Below are positions 11,034 through 11,364 of a DNA stretch of 21,174 nt, one piece after another. This DNA comes from Candidatus Thorarchaeota archaeon (lineage in GTDB: Archaea > Asgardarchaeota > Thorarchaeia > Thorarchaeales > Thorarchaeaceae), in the NCBI GenBank assembly GCA_048884785.1, contig JBHLQM010000062.1, positions 1 through 21,174 on the forward strand. Direction: 5' to 3'. The stretch's first letter is position 1, and each line of letters begins with the position of its first letter. Below the pieces are notes generated by a model, which saw nothing but the letters and a program-made list of their open reading frames with translations, searched no databases and was not told where the DNA came from. The position numbers and the translations under genes are program-made.

Positions 11034-11079
11034 AAAAATAAGCAGGAAGTGCTCAGGTCGCCTCGAGCAAGAGCACTTC
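11034..11079 (-). terminator. Hairpin plus U tract closing the micropeptide operon, overlapping the last ORF's stop
   Basis: GAAGTGCTC (11046-11054) and GAGCACTTC (11071-11079) form a perfect 9-bp inverted repeat. The minus strand continues CTGCTTATTTTT. Confidence 0.65.
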
Positions 11080-11160
11080 TTCATTAGTCAAGCAACGACG
11101 TTTCGCTTTATCGTTGGGTATACTAGGATTGCTGTCGAAGGATGATTTCTTAGATACCAT
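11053..11160 (-). CDS. Micropeptide 3 (35 aa), divergent member of the tandem array
   Basis: MVSKKSSFDSNPSIPNDKAKRRCLTNEEVLLLEAT*. ATG lies 6 nt after the stop of peptide 2. SD-like AGGT inside ACAGGTAG. Confidence 0.6.
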   Translation of the reverse strand: MVSKKSSFDSNPSIPNDKAKRRCLTNEEVLLLEAT

Positions 11161-11166
11161 TGTAAT

Positions 11167-11253
11167 CTACCTGTACATGTATGCATAGGTTATTGCGTCA
11201 GTGGAGATTCTCTTATTGTAGGAATTCTTGCTTGTCTTTCTCATTAGAGCCAT
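11167..11253 (-). CDS. Micropeptide 2 (28 aa)
   Basis: MALMRKTSKNSYNKRISTDAITYAYMYR*. SD GGAGGT is formed by the last codons and stop of peptide 1 (CGG AGG TAA), then 6 nt to ATG. Paralogous to peptide 1. Confidence 0.82.
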   Translation of the reverse strand: MALMRKTSKNSYNKRISTDAITYAYMYR

Positions 11254-11259
11254 GATACT

Positions 11260-11364
11260 TTACCTCCGATACTGGTAGGCAAAGGTGATTGCCTCGGTCG
11301 AGTAAACTCGGCCAGTCTTATTCTTCAGCACAGATGTGTTCCGGGTGTTAGTTGCTAGAGCCAT
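11260..11364 (-). CDS. Micropeptide 1 (34 aa)
   Basis: MALATNTRNTSVLKNKTGRVYSTEAITFAYQYRR*. TATATATA lies 32 nt upstream. Shares the MAL start and ST[ED]AIT[FY]AY[QM]YR with peptide 2, with synonymous codon differences. Confidence 0.82.
   Translation of the reverse strand: MALATNTRNTSVLKNKTGRVYSTEAITFAYQYRR

Follow-up and report, generated by a model that had tools for sequence, protein, structure and literature searches.

A hidden three-gene micropeptide operon of Thorarchaeota that shares its operator with a bactofilin-domain gene

Between two listed genes of a Candidatus Thorarchaeota archaeon, a convergent gene of 200 amino acids (aa; 10418-11020, plus strand) and a divergent small gene listed from 11418, lies a gap of 397 nucleotides (nt) that appears to be intergenic. 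Does it encode proteins and, if so, what could they do? The stretch of DNA that was analysed, hereafter the window, is made up of positions 1 to 21,174 (21,174 nt, forward strand) of contig JBHLQM010000062.1 from GenBank assembly GCA_048884785.1, which counts 3.61 Mb in 158 contigs and is 91% complete, with 5.4% contamination and 43.7% G+C. The initial annotation of the window had proposed that the gap hides an operon of three micropeptides (P1, P2 and P3) under selection at the protein level. The three open reading frames (ORFs) are present exactly as it quoted them, intact and on the minus strand, in a common reading frame with one stop codon between neighbours: gene A (P1, 34 aa, 11263-11364, stop codon 11260-11262), gene B (P2, 28 aa, 11170-11253, stop codon 11167-11169) and gene C (P3, 35 aa, 11056-11160, stop codon 11053-11055). 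The evidence presented here supports the core of that proposal: the gap holds a hidden three-gene micropeptide operon with protein-level selection. Positions 11034-11450 (minus strand) are one copy of a lineage-specific, self-contained Thorarchaeota expression cassette, in which a strong TATA promoter overlapped by a multi-repeat operator is followed by a very short leader, the translationally coupled genes A, B and C and an oligo-T stop.

The number of the genes speaks for their reality. A profile made from nine A/B members was compared with the 102,610 ORFs of 20-120 codons found in the genome and retrieved 14 small ORFs forming seven tandem pairs, with E values between 1e-16 and 0.026, at or below 1e-4 in 13 cases; P1 and P2 scored E = 3e-15 and 6e-12, respectively. 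An eighth, divergent cassette on contig C20 brings the total in this genome to eight. Each pair consists of a type A gene (32-36 aa) followed by a type B gene (26-31 aa). The profile-profile comparison of both types (hhalign probability 98.6%, E = 9e-16) shows that the likeness noticed between P1 and P2 is far above chance and that they are paralogues.

The search was extended to 41 related genomes. Matches were found in 23 of the 24 genomes from the same taxonomic family and in none of the 16 from other families; they are open frames of approximately 30-40 codons, with a single internal stop among more than 120 listed matches. A phylum-wide sample gave the same picture (matches to the A/B profile in 71/85 genomes of the family and 0/314 from the other families of the phylum). 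The homologues that the initial annotation had suggested looking for in Asgard relatives are thus restricted to one Thorarchaeota family, where their frames are kept open and the genes are amplified to as many as 14. Many of the matches in relatives lie at contig ends, as expected for repeats. A library of 1.84 billion representative proteins yielded only 24 matching clusters of small proteins, one of which differs from P1 at one residue. No match to a curated family emerged: scans of the window for tRNAs and Rfam families found none and a protein atlas search with P1 gave no usable match, the peptides themselves not having been scanned against Pfam, which has low power at 28-35 aa. A full-text literature search found no paper describing the family, which the initial annotation had not recognised either.

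The codons indicate on what selection acts. Across 83 members, the invariant serine is encoded by TCN and AGC, the threonine and both alanines by all four codons and the tyrosine by both of its own. Invariant or nearly invariant residues that use all their synonymous codons argue for selection on the protein, and the argument that had been drawn from the synonymous changes between P1 and P2 therefore holds across the family. The ratio of non-synonymous to synonymous substitution rates (dN/dS), another check that had been suggested, is 0.5-0.6 when pooled over pairs, a rough value because the pairs are not independent. One part of the cassette behaves differently. At the DNA level, conservation is higher in the promoter, the operator and the six opening codons of type A than in the flanking genes; the copies are ~80% identical in the stretch of the promoter and these codons, and codon choice is strongly biased at positions 2-4 of A. 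Such conservation would be expected if the locus were a non-coding regulatory or RNA repeat element whose open frames are accidental. Nevertheless, the rarity of internal stops in the 41 genomes, the free synonymous variation at the invariant helix residues and at the MALAK start of type B (unlike the N-terminus of type A) and the lack of any Rfam match all speak against it. This explanation is already contradicted by the codons, and its probability seems close to negligible.

The cassette carries its own signals for expression. The last two arginine codons and the stop codon of A contain the Shine-Dalgarno sequence GGAGGT of gene B (11260-11268, minus strand), an arrangement suggestive of translational coupling. 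The last arginine codon and the stop read GAGGTAA, 6-9 nt 5' of the next ATG, in all seven pairs then known (the C20 cassette is outside this count). Since AGG and the stop codon form the GAGGT of the next gene in these seven pairs, the terminal arginine reflects at least in part a nucleotide constraint. Gene C has a weaker Shine-Dalgarno-like AGGTAG, made up of the last codon and the stop of B (11167-11173, minus strand) and located 6 nt before its ATG. The sites that had been seen in the preceding stop regions are thus real and conserved. B and C are often in frame, and programmed read-through of the B stop codon was considered and rejected, as the spacer between both genes measures anything from 0 to 9 nt and does not preserve a single frame. 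Upstream, the predicted TATA promoter was located in the box TATATATA (11397-11404, minus strand), 32 nt 5' of the gene A ATG and conserved among copies; given this distance, the leader would be very short (approximately 8-10 nt). Downstream, a T5 run (11034-11038, minus strand) situated 15 nt past the gene C stop is likely an archaeal oligo-T terminator. The hairpin terminator previously placed after P3 was not confirmed, as no significant hairpin was found there on the minus strand (z = -1.0) and only the T5 run is left.

What kind of proteins are these? The A/B peptides have around 30 residues and a median net charge of +5 (A) or +6 (B). They are made up of a disordered tail rich in Lys, Arg, Asn and Thr and an amphipathic C-terminal helix of 11 residues whose conserved face reads S-T-x-A-[IVL]-x-x-A-Y; the N-terminus (MALA.N) is conserved as strongly as the C-terminus. 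AlphaFold2, run on the family alignment, predicts residues 1-22 of A to be disordered and 23-33 to form the helix (predicted local distance difference test, pLDDT, ~83). For C, it predicts disorder over residues 1-25 and a helix of eight residues at 26-33 (pLDDT ~87). Residues T23, A25, I26, A29 and Y30 of A/B fall on one helical face, together with a small-x3-small pair of alanines. The small-x3-small pattern is typical of close helix-helix packing, and the predicted helix appears suited to such packing. The earlier suggestion that the peptides may dock through a C-terminal helix hence agrees with the models of A and C, the conserved face carrying A-I-x-x-A-Y. A three-chain complex prediction of A, B and C scored 0.05, and no interaction is claimed from it. 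By eye alone, the LKNK/VKKN stretch of type A is reminiscent of WH2 or thymosin-like sequences.

The same positions bear on the proposal that the peptides are precursors of ribosomally synthesised and post-translationally modified peptides (RiPPs), with an aromatic core matured by enzymes encoded elsewhere. Short peptides with conserved Ser-Thr and aromatic residues would suit such a role, and we consider PqqA-like or cyclophane-like chemistry conceivable. However, the aromatic-x-aromatic-x-aromatic core announced for P1 and P2 does not survive the comparison with the rest of the family, since only one aromatic column, the tyrosine of the AY pair, is nearly invariant. Cysteine is practically missing (mean 0.0-0.04 per peptide), the acidic position that precedes the helix is freely occupied by D, E, K, R or Q, and conservation spans the whole peptide, including the N-terminus, without a leader/core split. 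Among the neighbours of 66 cassettes, no radical SAM, YcaO, LanM, P450 or cyclase family occurs in the 20 annotated clusters of the 25 most recurrent; a look at copy number and neighbours, advised by the initial annotation, thus revealed the copies and, among these annotated clusters, none of the radical SAM, P450 or YcaO genes. With no maturase among the annotated conserved neighbours, the RiPP reading is unsupported and we regard it as very improbable. A PqqA/mycofactocin-type precursor in particular (Glu-x3-Tyr or a C-terminal Val-Tyr, next to a radical SAM gene) was rejected, because the acidic position can be D, E, K, R, Q or A and no radical SAM gene was found among the annotated neighbours. 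A proteasome-docking HbYX C-terminus was likewise rejected: P2 ends in M-Y-R, but among 40 type B sequences the penultimate residue is most often R (20), followed by Y (15) and K (2).

Gene C belongs to another family. Directly after B, 29 distinct C-type ORFs were collected in relatives and four cassettes of this genome carry one. They share the C-terminal sequence L-T-x-E-E-V-L-A-L-E-A-T (ending EEVLALEAT, and LEAT at the end of the conserved helix) behind a variable start rich in Ser, Asp and Glu. P3 is thus a genuine third gene with a conserved family of its own; the further claim that it keeps the layout of P1 and P2 does not stand as homology, because hhalign gives A and C a probability of 0.1%. 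The median net charge of C is -3. The opposite charges of A/B and C, their tight translational coupling and the multiple copies could suggest a toxin/antidote module, in which A and B would be growth-arresting basic peptides neutralised by C or by a neighbouring pump. Yet pairing is not obligatory, as C is missing from 4/8 cassettes of this genome and from around half of those in relatives, the window's own C has a net charge of +1, no association of the cassettes with mobile elements or defence islands is seen and different genera share a strongly conserved sequence. Such a module seems improbable. Some public proteins join types B and C. P0017 (L118:1142-1354), of approximately 70 aa, can be translated only if TAG is read as Gln, and P0017, P0021 and P0029 all have Q exactly at the position of the window's TAG stop of B. 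P0017 is therefore treated as a gene-calling artefact, as P0021 and P0029 presumably are too, and the use of these fusions as Rosetta-stone evidence was dropped.

The region upstream of gene A connects the cassette to other genes. The operator of the window (11411-11450, minus strand) is composed of a palindrome, GTCACA-tct-TGTGAC (11436-11450), a second TGTGAC (11423-11428) and a degenerate third repeat, GTGGCT, beside the TATA box. A fourth box, TGTGAA (11370-11375, minus strand), lies within the conserved stretch cTTGTGAAnTAT just 5' of the gene A ATG, near the expected transcription start. The consensus GTnACA-N3-TGTGAC-N7-TGTGAC overlies the TATA box and is present in its strict form in 41 of the 66 cassettes examined, including the window's. 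The listed start of the 97-aa ORF at 11418-11711 (plus strand; no Pfam match) falls within this operator, and its homologues align only from around residue 24, so that its true start is probably the ATG at 11487 (~74 aa).

A matrix search of this genome found the operator before five cassettes (C1, C5, C19, C26 and the window) and also before four other genes: a 420-aa gene with a Bactofilin domain (C59; PF04519, E = 4e-10), a 359-aa putative membrane protein gene (C3; no Pfam match), an MFS gene (C53) and a gene of the S9 prolyl-oligopeptidase family (C45). A luciferase-like oxidoreductase gene has a weaker match in front of it. Of 41 genomes, 38 have the bactofilin-domain gene in a single copy. 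Among 30 orthologues, the operator is fused to a CCGCTTTATATA promoter in 27 of the 28 with a full upstream stretch, as judged by eye; the upstream stretch of the 29th is shortened and keeps the TATA-proximal part, and that of the 30th is cut off. The operator of the putative membrane protein gene is kept in 6/6 close orthologues from three genera. The S9 peptidase gene shares it in this genome only. As judged from the operator they have in common, the cassettes that carry it would be co-regulated with the bactofilin-type gene and the putative membrane protein gene.

A winged-helix gene lies directly upstream of the bactofilin-domain gene (HTH_45, E = 5e-7, ~100 aa; C59:7884-8285, minus strand; L210:2968-3369). 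The C-terminal end of its product, I-P-E-P-I-I-G-M, recurs upstream of the bactofilin-domain gene in most orthologous loci. No operator was found before the HTH_45 gene itself. By its position, the HTH_45 protein is a candidate regulator of the regulon.

The genes found within 5 kb of the 66 cassettes were clustered and define five syntenic groups. The annotated recurrent clusters comprise OPT, DUF167, profilin-like, winged helix-turn-helix (wHTH), S-adenosylmethionine (SAM) methyltransferase, MFS, EamA, PolX, URO-D, HDAC, SMC, flavodoxin, TrmB, ABC ATPase, GNAT, S7 and NusA proteins. Group I (15 genomes) consists of an OPT transporter, a DUF167 gene, two weakly profilin-like genes, a divergent PadR-like wHTH gene, the cassette and a convergent methyltransferase; being the most widely shared, it is the candidate ancestral locus. 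In this genome, two tandem genes of ~125 aa beside the group I cassette (C9:64596-65459, plus strand; L048:2597-3460) match Profilin weakly (E = 2e-4 and 1e-2, neither reaching the Pfam cut-off). In group II, an MFS_3 pump lies downstream of the cassette on the same strand in eight loci, and in three of these it starts only 6 nt after B. Group III has an EamA-SH3 transporter directly upstream (EamA is upstream in six loci) and a GNAT gene downstream. In group IV, URO-D and PolX genes precede the cassette. Finally, group V is characterized by an adjacent 200-aa zinc-ribbon (Zn-ribbon) membrane protein (six loci in two arrangements). The cassettes fall into three promoter classes: those with the shared operator, those of group I divergent from the wHTH gene and those of group V divergent from the Zn-ribbon gene. 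The window formally belongs to group V and is its odd one out, as its cassette is convergent with the Zn-ribbon gene instead of divergent and has the only group V operator.

Transporters and membrane proteins are thus recurrent companions of the cassettes, in modest excess over chance by a rough estimate. These contexts could suggest that the peptides are exported as cationic antimicrobials or signals in the style of leaderless bacteriocins; the acidic C, the RimL-type GNAT and flanking MFS/EamA pumps would then account for self-protection or export. It would agree with that role that the cationic peptides are paralogous, encoded in tandem and leaderless, that the third place of the operon is taken by either C or an MFS_3 pump and that EamA, OPT and GNAT (Acetyltransf_3) genes recur nearby. 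Nevertheless, the peptides are hydrophilic, with a single short helix of 11 residues and no hydrophobic core. MFS and drug/metabolite transporter carriers transport small molecules, and peptides of 3-4 kDa would be an unlikely cargo for them. The near-universal presence of the peptides in the lineage (71/85 genomes) is unlike that of strain-variable bacteriocins, and no ABC exporter or immunity gene set recurs among the annotated neighbours. Export therefore seems rather unlikely.

The comparison of the copies gives some indications of how they spread. A block made up of GNAT, Zn-ribbon membrane protein, orf97, superoxide reductase and ECF-S genes occurs at 9665-13287 of the window and again at C37:1342-5493 (L209), with 41-74% protein identity. 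Only the window copy holds a cassette, and the C37 copy showed no counterpart of the glyoxalase gene present in the window block. Both blocks may be paralogues, or one may come from a second strain in the bin, given its 5.4% contamination. Blocks with the same gene order from C37 and two congeners (G005:C17 and G003:C42) have no cassette between the Zn-ribbon gene and orf97, from which the window cassette seems to have arrived independently; the proteins of these blocks are only 41-58% identical, so the insertion cannot be dated. Of the five cassettes that bear the operator, two pairs (C5 with C1 and C19 with C26) agree to 95-96% in gene A, but their identity falls to 62-64% in gene B and to background level in the flanks. 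This combination points to patchy gene conversion or segmental replacement. The C5 cassette has an MFS gene on either side; both are paralogues of the operator-bearing MFS, with 42-45% identity to it. Downstream of the C1 cassette, the MFS_3 gene (C1:122168-123536, minus strand; L050:4168-5537) seems to lack around 60 codons at its start through a change of frame, in comparison with orthologues that start 6 nt after B; a frameshift, an error of assembly or a start further downstream could each account for it.

Several scenarios may explain what such a family does. The one that we tentatively prefer, as a plausible though far from assured reading, is that A, B and C are intracellular small docking proteins of an envelope/cytoskeleton regulon. 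A sequence-specific regulator, for which the HTH_45 protein is a candidate, would act as one switch for the operator-bearing cassettes (5/8 here, 41/66 overall), the bactofilin-domain gene and the putative membrane protein gene. When the switch opens, peptides would be synthesised in bulk from the many gene copies and would serve inside the cell as stoichiometric docking or adaptor proteins, whose helix would pack on a partner helix while the basic tail binds an acidic surface. As targets, the bactofilin-type polymer, the MFS/EamA transporters and the Zn-ribbon membrane protein would be the most likely. A more specific possibility, which must be considered distinctly doubtful, is that A, B and C serve the Thorarchaeota bactofilin-type polymer as dedicated partners that nucleate it, cap it or tether it to the membrane, and that they are perhaps partners of the profilin-like proteins of group I as well.

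Several observations weigh against the docking scenario. The MFS gene keeps the operator only in this genus (it is degenerate in one other), with 2/34 copies outside the genus by repeat pattern. None of the 15 group I cassettes and only 1/6 of group V, the window's, have the operator, so co-regulation with the bactofilin-domain gene is not universal. The adjacency to transporters is weak (~3/8 contexts in this genome against ~1 expected, p ~0.1, by a rough estimate). Besides, no membrane-spanning or strongly hydrophobic segment is found in the peptides, and their basic tail would fit nucleic-acid binding equally well.

This last point leads to the main rival, somewhat unlikely in our opinion, according to which the peptides are polyanion-binding bulk proteins of dormancy or stress, similar to the small acid-soluble spore proteins (SASPs): the basic tails of A and B would let them cover DNA, RNA or ribosomes, with the acidic C as their buffer or chaperone. 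Such a function would agree with the charge of +5 to +6 and the disordered tails, with the many copies and strong co-regulated promoters that suggest bulk demand, and with the S9 peptidase under the same operator, which could clear the peptides afterwards. Yet the best-conserved part of the peptides is the amphipathic A-I-x-x-A-Y helix and not the basic tail, no nucleic-acid-binding motif was recognised and the conserved partners of the regulon are a scaffold protein and a putative membrane protein.

The resemblance to known systems concerns architecture or logic only. The alpha/beta-type SASP families of Bacillus and Clostridium are also scattered, multi-gene small proteins with one dedicated regulatory signal and presumed bulk synthesis, and have a protease in the same programme (GPR, where the cassettes have the S9 peptidase under their operator). 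However, there is no similarity of sequence or fold: SASPs are monocistronic proteins of 60-75 aa that bind DNA as helix-turn-helix dimers, whereas the cassettes encode proteins of 26-38 aa with one short helix in coupled two- or three-gene operons, co-regulated with bactofilin-type and putative membrane protein genes. The leaderless multi-peptide operons of Firmicutes (aureocin A70 aurABCD, enterocin L50 and psm-alpha of Staphylococcus aureus) resemble the cassettes in having tandem paralogous genes, close together in a single operon and sometimes adjoining a pump, for cationic peptides of 20-45 residues that lack a signal sequence. But those peptides are hydrophobic or amphipathic throughout, membrane-active, strain-variable and exported by ABC transporters, and those of the cassettes are hydrophilic, multicopy and present in nearly every genome of one archaeal family.

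Closer to the docking scenario are the transporter modulators (SgrT-PtsG, MntS-MntP, MgtS and AcrZ-AcrB), which are shorter than 50 aa and whose genes are co-regulated with transporter genes or lie beside them. Modulators of the SgrT, MntS, MgtS and AcrZ type act by direct binding. In contrast to the cassettes, they are encoded by single-copy, single genes, their sequences are unrelated to those studied here and we know of no case with three coupled peptides in up to 14 copies. As for archaeal bactofilins, such as the halofilins of Haloferax, the best-conserved co-regulated partner of the cassettes has a Bactofilin domain, the link here being the shared operator only, and to our knowledge no small-peptide partners of bactofilins have been described.

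Two other genes of the window deserve mention. The transketolase encoded at 7605-9608 (minus strand) is full-length and of bacterial type; it is 65-74% identical to those of Thorarchaeota metagenome-assembled genomes and next, at 56-69%, to those of Chloroflexi/Anaerolineales, a likeness that may result from an old transfer between these sediment lineages. The ORF of an ECF-type riboflavin S-component (12430-13287, plus strand) has a listed GTG start that overlaps the desulfoferrodoxin gene (12173-12553, minus strand) by ~120 nt. Since only residues from 107 onward match the Pfam model, translation probably begins downstream of that GTG.

Asgard archaea have been studied mainly for their large eukaryote-like proteins, and their genes of less than 40 codons are almost entirely unannotated. 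The family described here exposes two hazards in this respect: gene callers miss the A, B and C genes, and callers that read TAG as Gln produce false B-C fusions in public databases. It is under purifying selection, occurs in nearly every Thorarchaeota genome and has its operator in common with a cytoskeleton-type gene and a putative membrane protein gene. If A, B and C were partners of the bactofilin-type polymer, they would be lineage-specific cytoskeleton regulators of an Asgard archaeon, and a single operator would turn on their genes and that of the polymer at the same time. More generally, the conservation, the amplification and the shared operator of the family point to an unrecognised and probably abundant component of the Thorarchaeota cell, and to a lineage-specific regulon.

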